A stretch of DNA of 64,000 bases from a virus. The stretch spans positions 1-64,000 of IMG/VR virus record IMGVR_UViG_3300046779_001269. One strand, written 5' to 3'. Under the pieces are notes generated by a model, which was not told the DNA's origin, made no database searches, and saw only the letters and a program-made list of their open reading frames with translations. Below are positions 8,806 to 50,392 of the stretch, piece after piece; positions within the stretch are counted from its first letter, which is position 1, and every line of letters begins with the position of its first letter. The position numbers were made by a program, and so were the translations under genes.

Positions 8806-9443
8806 CAAGCCTCCATCAATCTATTAACAAAATCCAATAATAGTTGATGTTGTTCACCGTTGTGATACTTATTCTTCATCCAACTATATTGTTCATACCA
8901 ATGTGGTTGACTTTCTGGATGACATCCAATTAAACCAACACGGCCTTGTATTATTGCCATTGGATCATCATTCTTATATTTGGCAATAATATCATAATAA
9001 CCAGGACCAAATGCACAACCATCGTAGAAGAACATTTCTTTTTCTTCACCCAACCAATCAACCTTTAGATTCTTTGCATGTGGCCTACGAGTGTCTGTAT
9101 TTGGTCTAGTGATGTATTGTTCTACGTCAACATTATGTAAAATATTAAAATAATCACGGCCAGCCCAATAAGCACCCATGCAAATTCCCAAATAACGGCC
9201 GCCATTACGAATAAAATCATAAATGCGGTTGCGATTATTTTTAAGCAAAGAATCAAAGCTGTCGCTGTCACCCAGACCACCAGGGAAAGCAACAATATCG
9301 ACATTATCAAAGAAATCATCTTCTAACTCATGCTTGGTGAAAATTTTGAAATTGTAATGGTCACCAAGTGCCTTGATAATGCCGTTGCCTGATTGCACCG
9401 AACACTTTGGTTGGTGCAGGAACAATGCTATAGTTGGTTTCAT
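8805..9443 (-). CDS. BPL_N / class I glutamine amidotransferase-like protein
   Basis: FPGG, GGRYLGICMGAY, HPE catalytic-triad motifs. Confidence 0.8.
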   Translation of the reverse strand: MKPTIALFLHQPKCSVQSGNGIIKALGDHYNFKIFTKHELEDDFFDNVDIVAFPGGLGDSDSFDSLLKNNRNRIYDFIRNGGRYLGICMGAYWAGRDYFNILHNVDVEQYITRPNTDTRRPHAKNLKVDWLGEEKEMFFYDGCAFGPGYYDIIAKYKNDDPMAIIQGRVGLIGCHPESQPHWYEQYSWMKNKYHNGEQHQLLLDFVNRLMEA

Positions 9444-32948: not shown

Positions 32949-34336
32949 ACTTTAAATCCATCAAACGATTTCTTTTGTGGTTTTTCTCTGTTACCAAATG
33001 TATTTAATGGCTTGTCCTGACCAGCGTCAGTCAAACCATCTTGACCTGATTGTTCAATATCATACAGTCTCATCTTTGCTCTGTCAATACCTAGTGTGAA
33101 TCGTTTGTAATAACCTGGGTCATTGTAACGATTCTTCAACTGTTTGACCATAATCTGTCCCATTTCTTCTAGTTCTTCGGATGAAATGAGAGCAAACATC
33201 AAGTCTGCGGTTGCTGGCAAACCAAAAGATTCACTTGTGTCCTCCAACCCAGGATCGGATGAACTATATCCGCTTCGTGTAGTTTGTGTAGCAGAAACGA
33301 CTGGTACTCCGAACTCAACTGCAAGACCTCGCAATTCTTCTGCGATTGCTTTGACATAGGTATAACTATTAATGTTGGCTCCGGCTTTGATTCTAGAGCT
33401 ACAGCAAATATTAAGATAATCAATGAAAATAATATCAGGTACAAAAGACTTTTTAAGGTTAAGTTCATTAAGTAAAGTCCTAAAGTGCGTAGCTGAGGCA
33501 GATGCAGTTGGGTATTCTTTGATGATAAGTTTTCCCACAGTCTTTTCACGGAGTTTTTGAATTCGTTTATCATATAATTCCTTGGACAAATTTGTCAATT
33601 CGTCCATAGTCACATTCAACAAGTTTGCATCTATGCGTTCGGCGATTCTTTCTTCCGACATTTCCATTGTGATATACAAAACATTTTTGCCTTGTGACAT
33701 ACAGCCAGCGGCCACATGACACATAAACAGAGACTTACCCACACCAGTCCCAGCCAAAGCAATGTTAAGTGTTTTAGCAGGTAGTCCACCTTTTGTAATC
33801 TTGTTAAAGAACTCCAAGTCAAATGGGATTCTTTCTTCATGTCTGTGATAGAAGTCGAATCGGTCATCTGAATTCTCCAAATAATCGTGGCCAACTGAAC
33901 TGTCAAAAGATATGGCTAACGCATCCGATAATAATTTTGGGATTGCACCCTTGTCGTTAGTCTTGTCTTTGCCGTCAAGGATAGAAATTGAGCCAAGAAC
34001 AGCATTGTATATTGCTTTTTCTTGGCAGAATTGTTCGGTTTTATCAGTGAGCCAGTCAAGTTTAGACACCTCCGATTTAGATGAAACAATCTCTTTGAGA
34101 TTAGATTCACACTGTTCCACTTCTTCATCTGTGAGATTTCGTTGCTCTTTGATGGCCAATCCAATTGCTTCAATAGTCGGTGTGCTATTGTAGTCCTGAA
34201 CGAACTTGGACACCTCTGTAAATATAGTGCGGTCAACTCTGTCCGTGAAATACTCACTTTTGAGAAAGGGTAGGACTTTGCGTAGGTATTCTTCATTGTA
34301 AATCAGATTCTTTAGAATCGTCTGTTCCAGTTTCAT
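32945..34336 (-). CDS. 41: replicative DNA helicase (gp41)
   Basis: AGTGVGKS Walker A, IDYLN, SESFGLPATAD, KQLKNRY. Confidence 0.95.
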   Translation of the reverse strand: MKLEQTILKNLIYNEEYLRKVLPFLKSEYFTDRVDRTIFTEVSKFVQDYNSTPTIEAIGLAIKEQRNLTDEEVEQCESNLKEIVSSKSEVSKLDWLTDKTEQFCQEKAIYNAVLGSISILDGKDKTNDKGAIPKLLSDALAISFDSSVGHDYLENSDDRFDFYHRHEERIPFDLEFFNKITKGGLPAKTLNIALAGTGVGKSLFMCHVAAGCMSQGKNVLYITMEMSEERIAERIDANLLNVTMDELTNLSKELYDKRIQKLREKTVGKLIIKEYPTASASATHFRTLLNELNLKKSFVPDIIFIDYLNICCSSRIKAGANINSYTYVKAIAEELRGLAVEFGVPVVSATQTTRSGYSSSDPGLEDTSESFGLPATADLMFALISSEELEEMGQIMVKQLKNRYNDPGYYKRFTLGIDRAKMRLYDIEQSGQDGLTDAGQDKPLNTFGNREKPQKKSFDGFKV

Positions 34337-41306: not shown

Positions 41307-41504
41307 TTATTCCGAGAAATCAGGTTTCATAATAACCTTCTCGTCAAATTCTCTTTTGATTCGTTCAAACTCGTCATCTTCAGCACGAGCATCATCTTTT
41401 TGTTGTGGTGTTTTCTTACGAAATATGGCATCATAGTTATCACCAAAAGTTTTTTGGTCTACACTAAATGGCCTTGGACTAGAACCTTTACCACCATCTG
41501 ACAT
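41307..41504 (-). CDS. small hypothetical protein
   Basis: MSDGGKGSSPRP...NYDAIF. Confidence 0.65.
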   Translation of the reverse strand: MSDGGKGSSPRPFSVDQKTFGDNYDAIFRKKTPQQKDDARAEDDEFERIKREFDEKVIMKPDFSE

Positions 41505-41505
41505 A

Positions 41506-41745
41506 TTACTCTCCGTAAATTAGTACAACGTGTTCAATTCTAAGGACATAATGTTCACCAGATTTGATTGCGCCATTCCAATTTAGTAAAACAATATCAC
41601 CAACAGAAACTTCGTCAACATCAGGACCAATTGCAATAACTTTTGCACGGTCTGCTTCTTCTGTGCTTCTGAGTACAATTCCTGAAGCAGTTGTTGTTTC
41701 TGCTGGAATACGTTCTACAATAATCTTGTCATGTAATGGGCGCAT
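41506..41745 (-). CDS. groES: co-chaperonin GroES-like
   Basis: RPLHDKIIV, TTASGIVL, VIAIGP, V.VGD; start at MRPLHD. Confidence 0.88.
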   Translation of the reverse strand: MRPLHDKIIVERIPAETTTASGIVLRSTEEADRAKVIAIGPDVDEVSVGDIVLLNWNGAIKSGEHYVLRIEHVVLIYGE

Positions 41746-41761
41746 AATGTCCTTAATAAAA

Positions 41762-41838
41762 TGGTTGCAGTGGCTGGACTCGCACCAACGACCTCCGAGG
41801 GTATGAACCTGGTGAGATAGCTTCTTCTCTACACTGCT
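41762..41838 (-). tRNA. tRNA-Met(CAT), initiator-like
   Basis: CAT anticodon, 1:72 mismatch, CCA; atypical T-loop TGCGAGT. Confidence 0.7.
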
Positions 41839-41843
41839 ACAAA

Positions 41844-41908
41844 TGGAGCGGGAAACAAGATTCTCACTTGTATATTGGGTGGACCCCAACATTGTTAAAA
41901 ACTCCCGC
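41844..41908 (-). ncRNA. D-armless tRNA-Gly-like RNA
   Basis: GCGGGAG/TTCCCGC-TCCA acceptor, TCC-containing hairpin, T-like arm, no D stem. Confidence 0.55.
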
Positions 41909-42014
41909 ATATACTCTATATAGAAACACACTAACCGTTATACAAAGCCTTCTGTATAACACGGAGGAATAAATTCCTGCTTATCCGTTAAACTGTCATT
42001 AATGTGTTTTTATA

Positions 42015-42088
42015 TGGAGCGGGATAAGAGAATCGAACTCTTAACCGAAGATTGGAAATCTGCTGTTTTACCATTAAACTAATCCCGC
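42015..42088 (-). tRNA. tRNA-Gly(TCC)
   Basis: Cloverleaf with CCA. Confidence 0.9.
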
Positions 42089-42092
42089 ATAT

Positions 42093-42962
42093 TGGCGCAC
42101 TGAGATTACATGCTGCCCATTGACACCTCATTCATTATAGTAAGCCTTGCGAGCCTACCTTCGCATGATATCCACCACAACTGTATTGCTACATATTGCA
42201 GTCTGTCAACAACATCGCCGTTTTGAAAGTCAGGCACTAGACTTGTCGCCATAAACTACTCTACGCTTTCTACCCCGTTGACCTTGCGAGCCATTCACAG
42301 TCGCTAAACCGTTACGAAACTTCTTGCATAAACTATCGTCACCTTGCGAGCTTCAATAGACTTGATTGTGTTACCACTCAAGTATTAGATGTTTTTCATC
42401 TATGACCGTGTCAGTCTTTGCGTTTTATTGTTAGAAGGAGTCGAACCTTCAGTCTATTTCTTGAAATGAAATTGGCCTACCATTAGCCTATAACTGAACC
42501 TACTGCGATGTGCTGACACAGTTGCTGCATACTCTTTTGGAATACACAATACAACACACCACGTACCTTTTGTCTTGCGAACTACTCAGTCGTCTTTCAC
42601 GATTAGTGTGACCCCGCCGATTTCTCGACAGCCCCAGTAACCATTCAAACTGCATACGAGCCCTTGACTGCAACATCTCGGACAAATACGCTACCCTTTC
42701 TCATACTGACTGGCAAGTTAGTGTTGTTGTGAGACTCAGCACCACCTGTTAGTTCTCTGTCTGCCTGTCTTACCCTCACGGGAACATAAACAGACATTCT
42801 TTCCACAACTCTTGCTTCCTCATTACATCCACCCGTCTTATAAGTGAACGACACCTCACGGTGTTGAGCAGGCTTGTTTAGATAGACTATTTCTAGCGGA
42901 GTTATGTAGGCATACCTCCTTTGGGTGACTCACGCCACTTATCTTAATGATGCTAAACCACC
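42093..42962 (-). ncRNA. large structured ncRNA, GOLLD-like (~870 nt)
   Basis: No credible ORF, own promoter, three CTCGCAAGG GNRA-type hairpin loops, embedded tRNA-like arm set, located inside a tRNA array. Confidence 0.6.
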
Positions 42963-42984
42963 ATTTGTTTTTCAACATGTATGT

Positions 42985-43038
42985 ATTGTATCAGAACCGA
43001 AGTGTCTTGTCAACACTTATTGTGGTATATTTACAACA
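42985..43038 (-). promoter_or_regulatory. sigma70 promoter plus near-palindrome, driving the large ncRNA
   Basis: TTGACA (43008-43013), 17 bp, TACAAT (42985-42990); TGTGG-N8-CAACA at 43021-43038. Confidence 0.75.
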
Positions 43039-43078
43039 CACACATAAAATTTTTATTTGTAGAGTTAATACAAAAATC

Positions 43079-43152
43079 TGGTGCCCCTAGAGAGAATCGA
43101 ACTCCCGTCCTCGGATTACAAAACCGATGTTCTACCATTTAACTACAGGGGC
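43079..43152 (-). tRNA. tRNA-Thr(TGT)
   Basis: Cloverleaf with CCA. Confidence 0.9.
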
Positions 43153-43157
43153 AAATT

Positions 43158-43231
43158 TGGAGCGGGTAGCGAGAATCGAACTCGCAAATAAACCTTGGCA
43201 AGGTTTCAGGTTACCTTTACATCATACCCGC
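43158..43231 (-). tRNA. tRNA-Gly(GCC)
   Basis: Cloverleaf with CCA. Confidence 0.88.
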
Positions 43232-43240
43232 AATTTGTTT

Positions 43241-43269
43241 ATTATATATGCTTTACAATCACTTGTCAA
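43241..43269 (-). promoter_or_regulatory. sigma70 promoter
   Basis: TTGACA, 17 bp, TATAAT. Confidence 0.75.
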
Positions 43270-43290
43270 GCACTCCTAGAAAATATTTTT

Positions 43291-43376
43291 TGGTGCGGGT
43301 AGCCGGACTCGAACCAGCACGCCATAAGGCGGGAGATTTTAAGTCTCCTGTGTACTACCAATTTCACCATACCCGC
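43291..43376 (-). tRNA. tRNA-Leu(TAA)
   Basis: Cloverleaf with long variable arm and CCA. Confidence 0.9.
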
Positions 43377-43379
43377 ACA

Positions 43380-43952
43380 TTACATTGTTGGTCCGTTTCC
43401 GTTTTTGAAACCGACTTCACCACCTTCATCTTTGATTCGTTTGATAACATCTTCAAAAAGAATAGGACGAAAATCTGTTTGTTCAACGCAAACACAATGA
43501 TATCTCACATCAACCTTAGAATTTTTAACACCTGTCATCACACGACCAGTATGAAGGTGACCGTGAATGTTAGTACCAAAACGACCAAGACTGGCTTCGT
43601 GAATTGGAATATGTGAAAGAATCATTCCGTTCATTACATGATATGCACGAAGTTCACGGAAGTGTTCTCTATATTCTTCATCACGGAAGATATCATGGTT
43701 ACCACGAATAAGAACCTTATCGCCGTTAAGTCTATGCATAATGCTAAGTGCTTTACGGTTGATAACTACATCACCAAGGTGATATACTTTATCATTTGGT
43801 CTTACTGTTTCGTTCCAACGCTTTACCATTTCCTCATCCATTTCAGCAGGATCAGTCCATGGTCTAATCTTTTGACCTGTGGTCGAATCGGTGAACCTAC
43901 ACACACCAGCATGGCCAAAGTGTGTATCACTTACAAGAAATACTGCTGGCAT
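43380..43952 (-). CDS. calcineurin-like metallophosphoesterase
   Basis: SDTHFGH, HLGD, GNHD, SH, HGHLH. Confidence 0.9.
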   Translation of the reverse strand: MPAVFLVSDTHFGHAGVCRFTDSTTGQKIRPWTDPAEMDEEMVKRWNETVRPNDKVYHLGDVVINRKALSIMHRLNGDKVLIRGNHDIFRDEEYREHFRELRAYHVMNGMILSHIPIHEASLGRFGTNIHGHLHTGRVMTGVKNSKVDVRYHCVCVEQTDFRPILFEDVIKRIKDEGGEVGFKNGNGPTM

Positions 43953-43968
43953 AATGTCTCCTAAAAAA

Positions 43969-44043
43969 TGGTCCGGCGTGCAGGAATCGAACCCACATTA
44001 AAAGGGTAGAAGCCTTCTGTATTATCCATTATACTAACGCCAG
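43969..44043 (-). tRNA. tRNA-Arg(TCT)
   Basis: Cloverleaf with CCA. Confidence 0.9.
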
Positions 44044-44049
44044 AATGTT

Positions 44050-44126
44050 TGGTGCCCTAGGAGGGACTCGAACCCTCAGAACCTGGTTTCTAAGACCAGT
44101 ACGTATACCAATTCCGTCACCAGGGC
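44050..44126 (-). tRNA. tRNA-Leu(TAG), short variable loop
   Basis: Cloverleaf with CCA, no long variable arm. Confidence 0.85.
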
Positions 44127-44298
44127 AAAAAATAAATAATCTTATGTCAGAATTCAAATCAGCAGAACCTAATCTTTGGCGATATGCCGCAACTCAACCG
44201 TATAAAGATACTAAATCTTTTTCGTGTGAGAAGGATTTTACACTTTCCTTTCCAAAAAGGCAAGTGGTTCCGTTTGAACGAACTGAAATAAAACAACT

Positions 44299-44372
44299 TG
44301 GTGCTCCAAGAAAGAATCGAACTTTCATTTAATCCTTACCATGGATTTGTTCTGCCATTAAACTATAGGAGC
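44299..44372 (-). tRNA. tRNA-Thr(GGT)
   Basis: Cloverleaf with CCA. Confidence 0.88.
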
Positions 44373-44376
44373 AAAG

Positions 44377-44451
44377 TGGTGGGTCATCAGAGAATCAAAC
44401 TCTGTTCTTCCGGTTAAGAGCCGGTTGCTTCATCACTTAAGCTTATAACCC
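44377..44451 (-). tRNA. tRNA-Lys(CTT)
   Basis: Cloverleaf with CCA; T-loop TTTGATT. Confidence 0.82.
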
Positions 44452-44566
44452 ATATAGAAACACACTGTACCTCTGCCGTGATTACGCCGATATCTAACGC
44501 ATCTGCGGACAACATATGATTACTTTTCTAGAATTTTCATCTTTTCAGATATAATGTGTTTTTATA

Positions 44567-44643
44567 TGGTACCCAAGGTGGGATTCGAGCCCACAAAAAC
44601 ATGTGTTTGAGACATGCACGTTTACCTATTTCGTCACTTGGGC
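44567..44643 (-). tRNA. tRNA-Leu(CAA), short variable loop
   Basis: Cloverleaf with CCA, no long variable arm. Confidence 0.8.
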
Positions 44644-44646
44644 ATT

Positions 44647-44722
44647 TGGTGCAACCTACAGGAATCGAACCTGTTTCAACGGCTCTTCAGACCGCCGCTA
44701 TGACCACATCAGCTAAAGTTGC
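44647..44722 (-). tRNA. tRNA-Phe(GAA)
   Basis: Cloverleaf with CCA. Confidence 0.88.
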
Positions 44723-44930
44723 ATATTGAATTTGTAAGTTGTGCCACCATCGTTATTGACACCATTCACCCAAGTATATAAAGCCGGCTGGGACTCGGTA
44801 CGTTATTACAGTTACTCATCCAACGTGTCTATATTTTGTACAGAGGTTTTGCGCCTCCCGTTGTTTACCTCCTCTTTGGCTGGCCAGCTACTTGAATCGG
44901 TGACTTTCACTTACTAACACTTACAAAAAT

Positions 44931-45005
44931 TGGTGCATCGTGAGAGGATTGAACTCCCGACCTTCGCCTTGTAAGGGCGCAGCTCTACCGCTGAGCTAAC
45001 GATGC
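44931..45005 (-). tRNA. tRNA-Val(TAC)
   Basis: Cloverleaf with CCA. Confidence 0.9.
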
Positions 45006-45015
45006 AAATTTACTT

Positions 45016-45090
45016 TGGGGAGACATACGAGAATCGAACTCGTGATAACGGAATCACAACCCGTGGTTTTACCACTAAACTAATGTCTCC
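45016..45090 (-). tRNA. tRNA-His(GTG)
   Basis: Cloverleaf, G-1:C73 pair, CCA. Confidence 0.9.
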
Positions 45091-45123
45091 CCAAAGCAAA
45101 CTTAATTACTTTGGGGGTCTGTA

Positions 45124-45612
45124 TTAACCTGCAATAGCTTCTTGCTCTGCCAGAATTCTTTTCAATCTGTCAGCACAGAAACTTGCAGCAGGCGCATCTG
45201 GTTTAACCATAGGTGTCATGTTACATGTACCTTTGATATAACCAATCGCTTGTTGCACAACACAAGAACTGCCGTGCATATCATCTTTGTTCAAGTCTAG
45301 GTGAACTTCAACATGATAATCTTCTAACACTTCAGCCAATGATTGGAACAATTCTGATACCTTATATACTTCTGTCATCAGACGCATAGCAGGTTTACTT
45401 TTCTTGTGGTCATAATCTAATTCACGGTCAACATAACCGAAAATTTTACAACCATGACGGCCATCAATATGAACTACGACAGCCAATGCATAATCAGCAT
45501 ACCAAACGCCGTTAACACGGATACGTTCAGAGTCAGCACCCAAATAAACTTTCGTATCTGGTCCTTGATTTGCAAGGAATTGTTTGACTTCTTGTATGTC
45601 GAAATTTCTCAT
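45124..45612 (-). CDS. YkuK/DUF458 family RNase H-like protein
   Basis: VYLGADS, RLMTEV..., EVHLDLN, KPDAPAASFCAD. Confidence 0.8.
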   Translation of the reverse strand: MRNFDIQEVKQFLANQGPDTKVYLGADSERIRVNGVWYADYALAVVVHIDGRHGCKIFGYVDRELDYDHKKSKPAMRLMTEVYKVSELFQSLAEVLEDYHVEVHLDLNKDDMHGSSCVVQQAIGYIKGTCNMTPMVKPDAPAASFCADRLKRILAEQEAIAG

Positions 45613-45634
45613 ATCAATCACCTTTCTATAAAAT

Positions 45635-45708
45635 TGGCTCCCCGCCAGGGAATCGAACCCCGTCCAAAAGTTTTGGAGACTCTTGTGCTACCGGAACACT
45701 TGCGGGAA
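45635..45708 (-). tRNA. tRNA-Trp(CCA)
   Basis: Cloverleaf with CCA. Confidence 0.88.
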
Positions 45709-45715
45709 ATAAACT

Positions 45716-45789
45716 TGGTACCTTGTACAAGAATCGAACTTGTGTCTACCGGTTATCAGCCGGGTGCTCTGCCATTGAGCTAACGAGGT
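45716..45789 (-). tRNA. tRNA-Ile(GAT)
   Basis: Cloverleaf with CCA. Confidence 0.88.
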
Positions 45790-46034
45790 AAAATGCTCTG
45801 ACATCCTGCGGCGGTAATTATACTTCTCAAGTCTTTCATCGTCATTTGACACATACAGGCATGACCCATACACATCATCGGATTACTTAACCATCACAGA
45901 AGCCTCCACCCGCTTCCCGACCAGGACCGTTATCGCATTGCTAGCGGCCTTTCGGTTTAAAGACTACCACCCGTGTATATCATTACACTTCTCATCCTGC
46001 GGGTCACAGTAGTGGTTGACGAGACCACACGTTC

Positions 46035-46109
46035 TGGAGGGCAATGAGAGAATCAAACTCCCGTTTCAAGGTTCGTAGCCTCGTGTATTATTCACTATAC
46101 GAATCGCCC
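46035..46109 (-). tRNA. tRNA-Arg(ACG)
   Basis: Cloverleaf with CCA. Confidence 0.82.
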
Positions 46110-46115
46110 ATAAAT

Positions 46116-46191
46116 TGGTGCAGCCAAAGGACTCGAACCTTTGCGGGAAACTAGTATACAGCGGACATGCCGCCTACCCCTCCATTACTGC
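46116..46191 (-). ncRNA. tRNA-like RNA: acceptor, T arm and CCA, but no canonical D/anticodon arms
   Basis: GCAGT.../...GGCTGC-ACCA; CAAAGG-TTCGAGT-CCTTTG. Confidence 0.6.
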
Positions 46192-46197
46192 ATATCT

Positions 46198-46272
46198 TGG
46201 TGGTTCAGGTGAGAATCGAACTCACACAAGGCACCGTATGAAGATGCTGCACTGCCACTATGCTACTGAACC
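46198..46272 (-). tRNA. tRNA-Met(CAT), elongator-like
   Basis: Cloverleaf with CCA. Confidence 0.82.
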
Positions 46273-46278
46273 GAAATT

Positions 46279-46353
46279 TGGTGGAGGCCGAGGAAATCGA
46301 ATCCTTCTAGACATTCTCCTTGCAAGGGAGAACCGCAGCCCACTGCTGCCCCC
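46279..46353 (-). tRNA. tRNA-Ala(TGC), atypical D arm
   Basis: G3:U70, TGC anticodon, D hairpin with 4-nt loop. Confidence 0.75.
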
Positions 46354-46402
46354 AAATAACTTACTACTTATCTCATTGTACGCCGCAAGTTAAGGCGAGA
46401 TA

Positions 46403-46478
46403 TGGTCTCCGTAGAGGGATTTGAACCCCCACTGCTTGGTCCCAAACCAAGAGCGCTACCAGGTTACGCTATACGGAG
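46403..46478 (-). tRNA. tRNA-Pro(TGG)
   Basis: Cloverleaf with CCA. Confidence 0.9.
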
Positions 46479-46483
46479 AAAAT

Positions 46484-46559
46484 TGGCTCCCTAGGTATGG
46501 ATCGAACATACGACATCCTGATTAACAGTCAGGCGCAACTACCGCTGTGCTACTAGGGA
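46484..46559 (-). tRNA. tRNA-Asn(GTT)
   Basis: Cloverleaf with CCA. Confidence 0.9.
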
Positions 46560-46644
46560 ATAAAATCTTGAAAGTTCCGATATCACCCATCGTCACTAAC
46601 AACCGTTGAGTAACCATGCATCAAAACAAGATTACTATTTGCCT

Positions 46645-46719
46645 TGGCGCCCCGTAGGGGAATCGAACCCCTGTCTTCCGATGGACAGTCGGATATAATG
46701 GCCGTTATATTAACGGGGC
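46645..46719 (-). tRNA. tRNA-Asp(GTC)
   Basis: Cloverleaf with CCA. Confidence 0.88.
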
Positions 46720-46724
46720 ATAAT

Positions 46725-46809
46725 TGGTGGAGACGGTGTGAGTCGAACACACAGTGCCAGAGGCGGCGGATTTACAGTCCACTGGGGTTACCAATTTTCC
46801 TACATCTCC
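46725..46809 (-). tRNA. tRNA-Tyr(GTA)
   Basis: Cloverleaf with long variable arm and CCA. Confidence 0.9.
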
Positions 46810-46818
46810 ATAATTGTT

Positions 46819-46893
46819 TGGTAGGTCCACAGAGAATCGAACTCTGATTTACTGGTTAAAAGCCAGTTACTTTAGCCGTTAAGTTATGAACCC
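46819..46893 (-). tRNA. tRNA-Lys(TTT)
   Basis: Cloverleaf with CCA. Confidence 0.88.
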
Positions 46894-47018
46894 ATTTACC
46901 ATTTGTTTTACTGACGCACTATTTGCTATGTTTCACCGGAGTAGCGGCCGCATTACCGTTTCTTAACATAGTTACATAAGGCTTGTACATGCTTCTGAGC
47001 TTACATCAGCAAAACAAA

Positions 47019-47093
47019 TGGTACACGATACGAGAATCGAACTCGTCTTTCCGCCTTGAAAGGGCAGCGTCCTAACCGATAGACGAATCGTGC
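47019..47093 (-). tRNA. tRNA-Glu(TTC)
   Basis: Cloverleaf with CCA. Confidence 0.9.
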
Positions 47094-47111
47094 ATTTATT
47101 AACTCTACAAA

Positions 47112-47186
47112 TTTTTAAAGAACAAGTGTGTATTGTATCACAACCACATCTTTTGTCAACCATTGTGTTGCAAAATTACAACACAA
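47112..47186 (-). promoter_or_regulatory. sigma70 promoter, palindrome and boxA-like element
   Basis: TTGACA (47154-47159), 16 bp, TGnTACAAT; TTGTGTTG-N8-CAACACAA (47163-47186); TGTTCTTTAAAAA downstream. Confidence 0.75.
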
Positions 47187-47188
47187 CT

Positions 47189-47262
47189 TGGAGTAGGTGA
47201 CAGGAATCGAACCTGTTTCCATGGGTTTGCAATCCAGTGCCTGTCCAACTGGCTCCACCTAC
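47189..47262 (-). tRNA. tRNA-Cys(GCA)
   Basis: Cloverleaf, U73, CCA. Confidence 0.88.
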
Positions 47263-47268
47263 ATTGTT

Positions 47269-47360
47269 TGGTACCAGCGGTGAGAATCGAACTCACTCAA
47301 GAACGCTAATCTGGCGCTAAAAGGTGTATAAGACCTCTCTGACTACCAAGTCTCGCTGGC
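47269..47360 (-). tRNA. atypical tRNA with TAT anticodon (nominally Ile), long variable arm, mini D loop
   Basis: GCCAGCG/CGCTGGT acceptor; GACT-TGGT-AGTC; GAGGT-CTTATAC-ACCTT; ~24-nt variable region. Confidence 0.65.
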
Positions 47361-47363
47361 ATT

Positions 47364-47451
47364 TGGCGGAGAGTATCGGATTCGAACCGATGCGCCGATT
47401 TCTCAACGACAGTTTAGCAAACTGCTGGTTTAACCACTCACCCAACTCTCC
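47364..47451 (-). tRNA. tRNA-Ser(GCT)
   Basis: Cloverleaf with long variable arm and CCA. Confidence 0.9.
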
Positions 47452-47458
47452 ATAAATT

Positions 47459-47550
47459 TGGCGGAAAGCAGAGGAGTCGAACCCCATCCCATTTCTGAGA
47501 ACCTAGTTTTCAAGGCTAGTCGCCGGACCATCCCAGCTGCATTACTTTCC
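47459..47550 (-). tRNA. tRNA-Ser(TGA), extra nucleotides before the D stem
   Basis: Cloverleaf with long variable arm, G73, CCA. Confidence 0.8.
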
Positions 47551-47684
47551 ATTAATTACCATATAGAAGCACGCTACGGAATCGAACCGCCGTGCTAGCC
47601 TGCTCCCCAAAGCGATGATACATCTTTAACCCAGAACCTCAGGAGCTACCTGATTTGTTAAAGATATACTAGCGCACTTCTATA

Positions 47685-47758
47685 TGGCACCCCCACTTGG
47701 AATCAAACCAAGACTAACAAGTTCAAAGCCTGTTGTGCTATCACTACACCATGGAGGA
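47685..47758 (-). tRNA. tRNA-Gln(TTG)
   Basis: Cloverleaf with CCA. Confidence 0.82.
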
Positions 47759-47778
47759 ACAATTATTAACTCTACAAA

Positions 47779-47851
47779 TTTTTAAAGAACAAGATGTGTA
47801 TTGTAACAGAATCAAAGAATCTGGCAACTACACTGTTGTTTTGAAACAACA
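47779..47851 (-). promoter_or_regulatory. sigma70 promoter, palindrome and boxA-like element
   Basis: TTGCCA (47822-47827), 16 bp, TGnTACAAT (47800-47805); TGTTG-N8-CAACA (47834-47851); TGTTCTTTAAAAA. Confidence 0.7.
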
Positions 47852-47854
47852 AAC

Positions 47855-47893
47855 AAAAAACCCTAGTAGATTTCTCTTACTAGGGTCTTGTGT
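47855..47893 (-). terminator. intrinsic terminator (attenuator hairpin) at the head of the tRNA array
   Basis: ACCCTAGTA-AGAGAAATC-TACTAGGGT followed by TTTTTGTTTG. Confidence 0.85.
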
Positions 47894-47918
47894 TTGGAGT
47901 CTTTTTAGAACTTTTTTA

Positions 47919-48035
47919 TTATCCGTCCCATCCTTCATCTACACAAAACCCGAGCGACCATGAGCCATTATCGGCACTATTAATTGTGCGATACTCTGGC
48001 TGCAATGTAAAGGGTTTATGGGATATGAGAGACAC
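47919..48035 (-). CDS. putative attenuator leader peptide (38 aa), not in ORF track
   Basis: GTG start, MSLISHKPFTLQPEYRTINSADNGSWSLGFCVDEGWDG, TAATAA stop; lies between promoter and terminator. Confidence 0.65.
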   Translation of the reverse strand: MSLISHKPFTLQPEYRTINSADNGSWSLGFCVDEGWDG

Positions 48036-48066
48036 TTTTTTCTTTCTAAAAATTAAATATGTTTGT

Positions 48067-48095
48067 ATTATATAGTAAACTTGGAGCCTTGGCAA
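48067..48095 (-). promoter_or_regulatory. sigma70 promoter for the leader/tRNA array
   Basis: TTGCCA, 17 bp, TATAAT. Confidence 0.75.
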
Positions 48096-48119
48096 GCGGT
48101 TTTTAAAAATATTTTTTAA

Positions 48120-48623
48120 TTATTTCCACCTAATTGGCTCGGAAACCACGGGTAAATTTGGATTTTTGAAGCCGTGGAAGACTTCCCACAGACATTCTTG
48201 TACAGCAAACTTGGTCAAAAGACCTGATTCACGACCATGAGCATCTATTTCCCATGGATGTTCCCAATAATCTACCTTGTCAGAATCTATGCGTTTACCT
48301 CTCCACATGGACAGGTCATCATTCGTTTCGCCACAGATTAATTGTTTGACATGCACCATTTCATGTGCAAGTGTGGAGAGTATGGTGGATGCACCTAGAC
48401 CAGGATGGACCTCAATTAGAAACTGTCGAGGTTGATTTCTTGTATTGTAACCTTCCGCACCACATGAACCATAATTTTCCAACTTAGCATCAAAACGAAC
48501 AATCGTGGTACAATTATTTCTGATTCTGGAATTTGTTATCAATTCTTTGGCGAAAAATTCGGTTGCCCGTACAATGTAAGGCTTAAAGTATTTGTCAGGA
48601 CAGTTGTAGACTTTTACTTGCAT
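48120..48623 (-). CDS. HExxH zinc metallopeptidase-like protein
   Basis: TLAHEMVHVKQ...PWEIDA. Confidence 0.8.
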   Translation of the reverse strand: MQVKVYNCPDKYFKPYIVRATEFFAKELITNSRIRNNCTTIVRFDAKLENYGSCGAEGYNTRNQPRQFLIEVHPGLGASTILSTLAHEMVHVKQLICGETNDDLSMWRGKRIDSDKVDYWEHPWEIDAHGRESGLLTKFAVQECLWEVFHGFKNPNLPVVSEPIRWK

Positions 48624-48631
48624 AAGCCTAT

Positions 48632-49060
48632 TTAGATTTGCTCTACTTTCACTCCTGCTTTTTCCAAGAATTGTATGCCAGCTTCACTACGGTAAGTGTT
48701 GCGATAGTAAACAGAATTGATACCAGATTGGTAAACCAATTTGGCACAGTCCAAACAAGGTGCGTGAGTAACGAACAAAGTAGAATCAAGGCCAGATTCG
48801 TTTGACTTTGCCAACTTAGCGATTGCATTTGTTTCAGCATGAAGTACCTCCGGTTTAGTTTCTAATATAACAACTCTTGTTTTGTCGGTCCATTCAGTTT
48901 CACAATTGTTGTCCCAACCGGATGGCATTCCATTGTATCCAATAGAAATAATGCGGTCATCTTTTACGATAACCGCACCAACTTGTAGTCGTCTGGCTGT
49001 AGAACATTCTGCGAATGTCTCAGCCATCTTCATATATGCATCACGAAATTTTTGTTTCAT
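48632..49060 (-). CDS. cd: dCMP deaminase
   Basis: GYNG, HAE, PCLDC. Confidence 0.92.
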   Translation of the reverse strand: MKQKFRDAYMKMAETFAECSTARRLQVGAVIVKDDRIISIGYNGMPSGWDNNCETEWTDKTRVVILETKPEVLHAETNAIAKLAKSNESGLDSTLFVTHAPCLDCAKLVYQSGINSVYYRNTYRSEAGIQFLEKAGVKVEQI

Positions 49061-49209
49061 CAATCAAAGTCTACTGGATAATAATCGTGTTTACCTACAC
49101 CACATTCTGGGCAACCAACTTCTTCTGGTAGCGATTGCCAATCAGATTCTTTCATTGTGTGACCACAAACGATACACACATAATCTCTTTCTTGATTTTG
49201 ATTTTCCAT
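49060..49209 (-). CDS. rubredoxin (49 aa), not in ORF track
   Basis: YVCIVCGH...LPEEVGCPECGVGK. Confidence 0.85.
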   Translation of the reverse strand: MENQNQERDYVCIVCGHTMKESDWQSLPEEVGCPECGVGKHDYYPVDFD

Positions 49210-49658
49210 TATTGTACCTCTTGTAACATTCTTTGATATGCTGTTGCGTGTCGTTCTTCAACTTTGGCCAATGCCGCAAAACGCTTTTCTGCCAACTCCA
49301 AAACTTTTCTGAATTGTTCAGCATGTTCTTTAGATTCATCAATCTGTTCCTGGAACTCAGTAACAGCAGTATGACCTTCTTGCGCTGCTTGTTCCTTAAA
49401 AGTAGGATACATGTGTGTGAACTCATGTGTCTCACCTTCGATAGCCAACTCCAAACACTTGCGTGTGTTTGGTTTACCAATCAACAATTCTAGGTGACCC
49501 CAGGCATGTTTGATTTCTTGGTCTGCTGTATGTTCAAAGTGTTTTGCAACTTCTTCGTAACCTTCTTCACGAGCCAACTTGGCAAAATAACGGTATTTGA
49601 TGTGTGCCATTGACTCACCTGCCAATGCACTCTCAAGGTTTTTAATTGTAACCGACAT
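49209..49658 (-). CDS. rubrerythrin (ferritin-like domain)
   Basis: NL..ALAGESMA, EIKHA, EGETHE, ESKEHA. Confidence 0.88.
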   Translation of the reverse strand: MSVTIKNLESALAGESMAHIKYRYFAKLAREEGYEEVAKHFEHTADQEIKHAWGHLELLIGKPNTRKCLELAIEGETHEFTHMYPTFKEQAAQEGHTAVTEFQEQIDESKEHAEQFRKVLELAEKRFAALAKVEERHATAYQRMLQEVQ

Positions 49659-49758
49659 AATTTCCTTTCAATAGTTAAGTAACCTCATGGATTACTTATC
49701 ATAGTATATCACTATTATGATAGAAAATCTAATTGAAAATTTCTATCATCGTAATAGT

Positions 49759-49835
49759 TGGTGCGCCCACTAGGACTTGAACCTAGGACCAATGGATTAT
49801 GAGTCCACTGCTCTGACCAACTGAGCTATAGGCGC
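49759..49835 (-). tRNA. tRNA with CAT anticodon, probably Ile2 (lysidine type)
   Basis: Cloverleaf with CCA; CTCATAA loop; two other CAT tRNAs already present. Confidence 0.8.
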
Positions 49836-50392
49836 ATGAATGTTTCATATATGTTCTGTTGTTTGGTGATTGCCATATCAACAAAGGCAAGGTTGTCAAA
49901 CATTCGGTCATCATAGTATGCACGAATAGTTCCTTTTGTTGCCTGAACTGTCGCTTCTTTTTCACCATAACCAACTGTAACAACAGTCATACCATTTTTC
50001 TTGGCAATGTGTTGCATTACTTGGTTCTCAGATAGACATTGTGTGTAAAGTGTTCTGACACCTTTCATCATTGCCCATGTTGAACCACGAATGAATAGTT
50101 CTTGTCCTAGTCCTTGTCCACGATAATCTGGTGAAACAGTAAATCCCATTTCAGCTATATCACCATCTATTGAAACATGAACAGAAGCAACAACTTTATC
50201 TTTCTTCTCAACGATAAACCACATGTTCACAATACCAAAATCATAAAACGATTTGGTCAAATAATCTTGAACATTATCATCAGTAGCACTATAACCGAAC
50301 CTCAGGTATCGGTCGTGACCAACAATATCAGTCAAGAAATGGTCAAAGAGTTTACCTTCATCCGACTCATACATTATTTTGCGTGGAATCAT
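49826..50392 (-). CDS. GNAT-family acetyltransferase
   Basis: RYLRFG; V.PDYRGQGLG acetyl-CoA motif; EN..M..IAKK.G. Confidence 0.85.
   Translation of the reverse strand: MIPRKIMYESDEGKLFDHFLTDIVGHDRYLRFGYSATDDNVQDYLTKSFYDFGIVNMWFIVEKKDKVVASVHVSIDGDIAEMGFTVSPDYRGQGLGQELFIRGSTWAMMKGVRTLYTQCLSENQVMQHIAKKNGMTVVTVGYGEKEATVQATKGTIRAYYDDRMFDNLAFVDMAITKQQNIYETFMRL

Follow-up and report, generated by a model that had tools for sequence, protein, structure and literature searches.

We have identified here, in the tRNA gene array of an uncultured phage, a full-length two-domain GOLLD RNA of ~870 nt, a member of a known family, whose linker carries a tRNA-like module. The DNA studied (hereafter the window) comprises positions 1-64,000 of the metagenome-derived IMG/VR virus record IMGVR_UViG_3300046779_001269, which is 176,024 bp long and complete by CheckV. 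The large genes of this phage are T4-like and include those for a DNA polymerase (~52% identity to cyanomyovirus ones), a gp44-type clamp loader, NrdA, a DnaB-like helicase and an SbcC-like nuclease. GOLLD RNA, reportedly the subject of work by Weinberg et al. in 2009, is encoded by phages and prophages, often within or beside tRNA clusters, and its expression rises in lytic growth. It is among the largest non-coding RNAs of bacteria and phages, and the RNA-only cages that it forms have been known since 2025. The element adds no new class, being a typical GOLLD member in a T4-like aquatic phage; the data on its tRNA mimic provide a testable lead on GOLLD function, not an answer. Taken as a whole, the explanation developed below is in our judgement very probably correct: a GOLLD gene of ~870-885 nt running from ~42978/42965 to ~42093, with proposed 3' processing, assembly into a cage and a tethered tRNA mimic.

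The original prediction had assigned the element to GOLLD from its size and context. That assignment is now carried by a match to the Rfam GOLLD model RF02032, which covers 42097-42562 on the minus strand over the full length of the model (positions 1-416 of 416) with a score of 194.2 bits (E 3e-53) against a gathering score of 150 bits, and which is the sole match to this model in the entire phage genome. An Infernal search with both the GOLLD and the ROOL models of Rfam had been proposed as the check, and it comes out in favor of GOLLD: ROOL was without a match at its gathering score anywhere in the window, and at E<=1 it had none within 41500-43600. A permissive scan with other large-RNA Rfam families likewise gave no match at E<=1 in the GOLLD region. 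All of the relatives examined pass the RF02032 cut-off (12/12, at 159-202 bits). The predicted size (~870 nt), limits (42093-42962) and position among phage tRNA genes also stand. The conserved RNA is ~870-880 nt long, and the limits lie no more than 3 nt from its conserved 5' start (~42965) and include the GCCA tail at its other end. The element is located between tRNA-Thr(UGU) (43079-43152, minus strand), the last gene upstream of the GOLLD promoter, and tRNA-Gly(UCC) (42015-42088, minus strand), which lies ~8 nt downstream of the Rfam match. Both neighbors are the same in the relative L088, and the tRNA-Gly is also the same in L005.

Of the 5' domain, the RF02032 model takes in just the last hairpin, ahead of the linker and the 3' domain, and the upstream 400 nt were therefore examined separately. 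To collect relatives, IMG/VR was scanned for patterns of conserved motifs from the 3' domain, with GUAAUCUCAG as anchor; this returned at least 120 GOLLD loci. Iterated nhmmer searches show that the upstream region is common in full length to at least 15 other IMG/VR GOLLDs and starts at 42964-42965. The resulting 5' domain (42563-42965, minus strand, ~403 nt) has nhmmer homology in 16 GOLLDs and contains covarying helices. Some twenty other GOLLDs among the loci listed match only its first 50-100 nt, and beyond this point the domain is unalignable by nhmmer to most other GOLLDs. The 5' domain is that of one particular GOLLD subfamily, for which the stoichiometry and cap geometry may differ from those of the solved examples.

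The secondary structure was derived from an alignment (A1) of 13 full-length members of ~870 nt with a mean column identity of 63%. RNAalifold finds 159 consensus pairs in A1, 111 of them with compensatory changes. Many covarying helices lie in the 5' half of the alignment, and the 3' domain helices (columns 648-970) likewise contain many compensatory pairs. RNAalifold also joins columns 49-51 to columns 886-888 by long-range pairing; this proposal was not adopted, the pairing being invariant and so uninformative. The folding energy of the single sequence is weakly better than that of shuffles (z -1.8), a measure that is uninformative for an RNA of this kind.

The part matched by RF02032 (42097-42562, minus strand) comprises the last 5' hairpin, the linker and the conserved 3' domain. 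The three CTCGCAAGG loops noted in the original prediction are all present and correspond to GCAA-tetraloop hairpins of the 3' domain, in which the tetraloop is closed by a C-G pair. This motif occurs exactly three times in the 64-kb window, each time inside the element, where 0.08 occurrences are expected; none of 100 shuffles reaches three. The first hairpin (CUCGCAAGG, 42342-42350, minus strand) aligns to the Rfam consensus ggcuCGCAAggcc. The second, with the same sequence (42282-42290, minus strand), also aligns to a tetraloop hairpin of the GOLLD consensus, and its helix covaries (columns 764-768 with 776-780). The third, again CUCGCAAGG (42145-42153, minus strand), is carried by the penultimate hairpin, on an insertion that the Rfam model lacks. 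The loop of the last GOLLD hairpin, GUAAUCUCAG (42100-42109, minus strand), is invariant in A1. The element resembles the GOLLD family not only in its full model match and its size of ~870 nt, within the ~700-900 nt typical of GOLLDs, but in its architecture, with a large, less conserved 5' domain (~400 nt) joined through a linker to the conserved 3' domain, in its invariant terminal loop and GCAA-tetraloop hairpins, and in its setting in a phage tRNA island. The published GOLLD bridge loops include L20, L21a, L21b and L11a. At a guess, a UUAGCG loop at ~42307-42302, with its GC dinucleotide, could be the self-kissing L21a.

The element has a consensus promoter of its own, as originally predicted. 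This sigma-70-type promoter (42985-43013, minus strand) consists of a -35 hexamer TTGACA (43013-43008), a 17-nt spacer and an extended -10 element TGnTACAAT, with the -10 hexamer TACAAT at 42990-42985, and matches the consensus at 11 of 12 positions. A scan for such promoters was not enriched overall (6 sites against 5.2 expected), and the support for the promoter is therefore its conservation: both hexamers and the TG are kept in the closest relatives L088 (95% identical) and L005 (86%), in which the spacer has diverged. The distant members L016 and L031 have upstream TTGACA-17-TAnAnT promoters of their own. Transcription from the promoter of the phage RNA is predicted to start near 42978, ~13 nt ahead of the conserved RNA, and would probably be supplemented by read-through from upstream tRNA promoters.

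The surrounding tRNA array extends over ~41.7-49.8 kb and contains 28 tRNA calls, including the linker module, every one of them on the minus strand. A perfect (12/12) sigma-70 promoter, TTGACA-17-TATAAT, lies inside the array at 43241-43269 (minus strand) between tRNA-Leu(UAA) and tRNA-Gly(GCC); the array therefore seems to be split into several short transcription units, each with a strong promoter. One of the calls, a tRNA-Ile(UAU) at 47269-47360 (minus strand), has an unusual geometry, being 92 nt long with its anticodon at position 31, and may be a miscall or a gene with an insertion. Also found within the array are small ORFs, all on the minus strand, for a calcineurin-like metallophosphoesterase (43380-43952), an RNaseH-like (PF04308) protein (45124-45621) and a GNAT acetyltransferase (49826-50392). 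Genes for RNA repair by an RNA ligase or a kinase-phosphatase were not seen near the tRNA array.

The RNA ends ...GTAATCTCAG-TGC-GCCA at 42093, in agreement with the predicted end ...GTAATCTCAGTGCGCCA, which stops about five bases ahead of the tRNA-Gly start (42088). The GCCA tail (42093-42096, minus strand) follows the last stem and is itself followed by AUAU and then the tRNA-Gly. Since there is no terminator-like site after the RNA on its own strand, and the tRNA-Gly lies only 8 nt past the Rfam match, the 3' end would be made by an RNase P cut at the adjacent tRNA-Gly. Other GOLLDs have a T-run after the last hairpin, and in these the hairpin and T-run probably terminate transcription themselves. 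A G-CCA after the last stem is also present in L088, L005 and L103, where it resembles the ends of the neighboring tRNA genes, and L103 keeps it though the downstream tRNA-Gly is absent. The GCCA end was considered as a tRNA-like feature of the family and rejected, since it is confined to the closest clade of the window RNA (5 of the 60 distinct 3' ends listed).

The tRNA-like module, which did not figure in the original prediction, occupies 42425-42498 (minus strand) in the GOLLD linker, at RF02032 positions ~62-140. It is called as a tRNA both by ARAGORN, as tRNA-Glu(UUC), and by the Rfam model RF00005, at 49.8 bits (gathering score 29). The D, anticodon and T arms are intact, the anticodon loop has 7 nt, and G18-G19, U33 and A37 are present. 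The acceptor stem has 4 pairs followed by T.T, C/A and A/A mismatches, and so falls short of the seven pairs of a tRNA; the module alone among the 28 tRNA calls in the window has 3 unpaired acceptor positions. It also has no CCA, whereas all of the free-standing tRNA genes in the window (27/27; 41762-49835, minus strand) encode a 3' CCA.

A second IMG/VR scan, for the module together with its GOLLD flanks and with an intact T-loop required, returned at least 119 loci; the matches listed contain 98 distinct inserts, of which 90 are called as tRNAs by ARAGORN. The same loci supplied 1283 distinct free-standing tRNAs for comparison with these 90 modules. Among the matches listed, the acceptor stem is fully paired in 10/90 modules against 1097/1283 free-standing tRNAs, CCA is encoded by 1/90 against 1134/1283 (88%), and the GC content is 40% against 53%. 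The p-values for comparisons of modules with free-standing tRNAs are nominal, as the sequences are related and an intact T-loop was needed in the second scan. The remainder of the module keeps its tRNA form. The D, anticodon and T arms covary in A1 (RNAalifold), and among the matches listed the anticodon loop has 7 nt in 82/90 modules, with U33 in 80/82 of these and A37 in 68/82. In the clade of the window RNA, 15/67 module-body columns are variable (22%) against 300/796 in the rest of the RNA (38%; p 0.012). Five GOLLDs with only ~80% overall identity have exactly the same mismatched acceptor stem. Judged from these sequence comparisons, the module is conserved and not decaying. Three members of the same subfamily (L083:3480-4298, L021:9000-9831 and L040:4293-5124) are without an intact module, L083 retaining only a T-arm-like hairpin of it; the module is therefore dispensable for GOLLD as such.

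Two helices tie the module into the fold of the larger RNA. In the first, the loop CCUAC of a 5'-domain hairpin (42906-42910, minus strand) pairs over a long range with the sequence GUAGG directly 5' of the module (42499-42503, minus strand). All positions of this 5-pair helix are paired in 13/13 A1 sequences, and 4/5 pairs have compensatory changes, as in the combinations GUGAU with AUCAC and GUGGG with CCCAU. In 500 shuffles no equally good pairing arose, and positions slid relative to one another were paired in 30-52% of cases. In the larger set, a 5-mer complementary to the loop is found in the first 14 linker bases of 86/86 sequences among the matches listed, and in 84 the offset is identical. 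The helix may form either within one chain or between chains. The second helix closes the linker, with a 5' strand UGUGUCAGC (42512-42520, minus strand) and a 3' strand G-A-CUGACACG (42407-42416, minus strand; RNAalifold columns 522-530 with 638-647). Several of its pairs covary, for example GC7/UA4/AU1/CG1. The 3' strand comes after a conserved A-rich segment, AAAACGCAAAGA, that aligns to the Rfam consensus AAAGCAAAAGUCU and forms the 3' flank of the module. A covarying partner for this flank was sought in A1, and nothing convincing was found; according to PMC12286853 the region forms the L20 kissing loop in the env-38 GOLLD. Because of the GUAGG/CCUAC helix and the closing helix, the module hangs on a short stalk off a closed junction, and the segment that would serve as its RNase P leader is base-paired.

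The anticodon of the module behaves differently from its body. The same module body carries UUC in the window RNA, UCU in L198, CUU in L143, UUU in L183 and L224, and GUU in L190 and L088. In pairs with bodies at least 90% identical, the anticodon differs in 12/19 module pairs against 4/288 free-tRNA pairs among the matches listed, related sequences being counted as independent, so that p-values here too are nominal. The triplets are biased to NUU, with GUU 24, CUU 14, UUU 13 and UCU 8 as the counts among the matches listed, and U36 is present in 65/82 modules against 447/1271 free tRNAs, again among the matches listed. Stop-codon readers also occur, as do Leu and Ser anticodons on bodies with a short variable arm, and loops of 6 and 8 nt. 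Since the triplet varies while the module body is frozen, the partner of the module most likely reads the anticodon or its loop. The natural variants UUC, UCU, CUU, UUU and GUU constitute a near-isogenic set with which this can be tested.

Published structures suggest where such a partner might be met. The env-38 GOLLD of 833 nt forms a 14-mer cage with D7 symmetry (PDB 9MEE; PMC12286853), and the Streptococcus agalactiae GOLLD is a 12-mer (PDB 9L0R, as cited in PMC12990946). By analogy with these examples, copies of the phage RNA would assemble by themselves to a closed cage made of RNA alone, with caps built from the 5' domains, rings built from the 3' domains, and linkers directed toward the lumen. 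Each chain would then contribute one module anticodon loop to the inside of the cage, and the anticodon switching points to readers of anticodon loops as likely partners in the cage interior. The phage RNA differs from the env-38 RNA in that the linker is 42 nt and disordered in the latter, but ~83 nt and apparently folded as a tRNA mimic in the former. It also differs from the solved GOLLDs in its 5' domain, of which only the first 50-100 nt are shared with most other GOLLDs.

On balance we lean toward reading the module as a tRNA mimic that is tethered permanently, and not as the precursor of a tRNA, because its acceptor stalk has 4 bp, it has no CCA, and its 5' flank is paired to a 5'-domain loop. 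A more specific proposal, which we put forward only tentatively, is that the module of this subfamily is a conserved but non-chargeable mimic with its anticodon under diversifying selection, and that it acts inside the cage either as a decoy or trap or in the docking of cargo. If this were so, the inner face of the shell would present about a dozen copies of one anticodon loop. A decoy of this kind might be aimed at, for example, an anticodon nuclease of anti-phage defence or a tRNA-modifying enzyme, and in the alternative role cargo would dock at the loops according to their anticodon. The preference for NUU (Asn- or Lys-like) anticodons and for U36-A37 would then reflect the host factor that is met.

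The proposed tethered mimic has counterparts among other tRNA-like structures. The tRNA-like domain of tmRNA and the 3' tRNA-like structures of plant viruses have a functional CCA acceptor end and are aminoacylated, and their anticodon is lacking or ignored. On this reading the module shares with these mimics a tRNA-shaped fold that works inside a bigger RNA and does not decode. It is otherwise their reverse, in that its acceptor end is degenerate, whereas its anticodon loop is conserved in form and carries a variable triplet.

The presence of tRNAs in GOLLD linkers has been noted before, together with the proposal that cages store tRNAs (PMC12286853, PMC12990946); one such case is a Mycolicibacterium GOLLD with a tRNA-Phe in linker J13/15 (Morgado et al., as reported in PMC12990946). 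The element in these RNAs is alike in being tRNA-shaped, in lying at the same place and in being predicted to face the cage interior. Where the papers discuss it, they treat it as a tRNA that may be stored and released: PMC12990946 proposes 'inhibited storage' for the Mycolicibacterium tRNA-Phe GOLLD, and PMC12286853 sketches a similar idea. Applied to the phage RNA, this would make the module a genuine tRNA-Glu(UUC), stored in the cage and set free by RNase P, 3' processing and CCA addition, and GOLLD a carrier for the timed release of tRNA. A score above the Rfam tRNA cut-off, the retained D, anticodon and T arms and the presence of G18-G19, U33 and A37 are all as would be expected of such a tRNA, and with its tRNA score and its U33 and A37 the module may be processed to a tRNA-like RNA of some kind. 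We nevertheless consider release as a functional tRNA-Glu unlikely. The acceptor stem is limited to four pairs and the mismatched stem is unchanged across GOLLDs only ~80% identical overall, CCA is not encoded where every free-standing tRNA gene of the array encodes it, and a covarying helix engages the 5' leader. The phage moreover already has a normal, free-standing tRNA-Glu(UUC) at 47019-47093 (minus strand). Stop-codon, Leu and Ser anticodons on bodies with a short variable arm, and anticodon loops of 6 or 8 nt, are likewise difficult to reconcile with a stock of working tRNAs. Unlike the stored tRNA of the papers, the module here and in at least 90 IMG/VR relatives is without CCA (1/90 encodes it) and has a weakened acceptor stem; its 5' flank is tied to the 5' domain, and its anticodon changes on a constant body.

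A second alternative is that the module is a tRNA pseudogene decaying in a tolerant linker and without a function of its own. The low GC content, the broken acceptor stem and the missing CCA are what such decay would leave behind, the loss or degradation of the module in L083, L021 and L040 is as expected of a dispensable remnant, and the GOLLD linker is known as a variable and disordered region. Against this, the module body is more conserved than the remaining RNA in the clade of the window RNA (p 0.012), its arms covary, and the loop length, U33 (at least 80/82) and A37 (68/82) are kept. At least 119 IMG/VR loci have the module at the same position between the same flanks, and change is concentrated on three nucleotides, a pattern unexpected of a decaying gene. 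We therefore regard a pseudogene as a poor explanation of the module, with a low probability of being correct.

The ORF-poor character of the segment, already part of the original prediction, is borne out by comparison: the longest ORF, of 69 aa, recurs in no relative but the 95%-identical L088, and none is conserved across the relatives. That the element is something other than GOLLD, whether ROOL or a new large RNA class, a spacer of a tRNA operon or a region coding for a small protein, is scarcely credible, as this reading is refuted by the full-length GOLLD match far over the cut-off, the lack of any match to ROOL or another large-RNA family at E<=1 in the region, the extensive covariation and the ORF comparison, and nothing speaks in its favor after testing. 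ROOL resembles the element in its phage setting near tRNAs, its large size and its cage with an internal linker, but is an unrelated family, and at E<=1 nothing in the region matches it in sequence or structure.

No cultured phage with a close relative of the RNA was found. A megablast search of the locus against 50,697 GenBank phages gave no match, and the only match in a sensitive blastn search of the GenBank phages, 198 nt at 68% identity, is to Sinorhizobium phage Phosso (PV764938.1, 33493-33691); the absence of a cultured near-relative follows from this match being both the only one and weak. It falls in an unannotated stretch of this 469-kb cultured phage, and 33493-33691 is probably an unannotated GOLLD. 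A further RNA gene was encountered beside one of the more distant members: the related viral contig L016 carries, at 8908-9279 (plus strand) and ~1.4 kb upstream of its GOLLD, a permuted two-piece tmRNA gene of the alphaproteobacterial type (80 bits).
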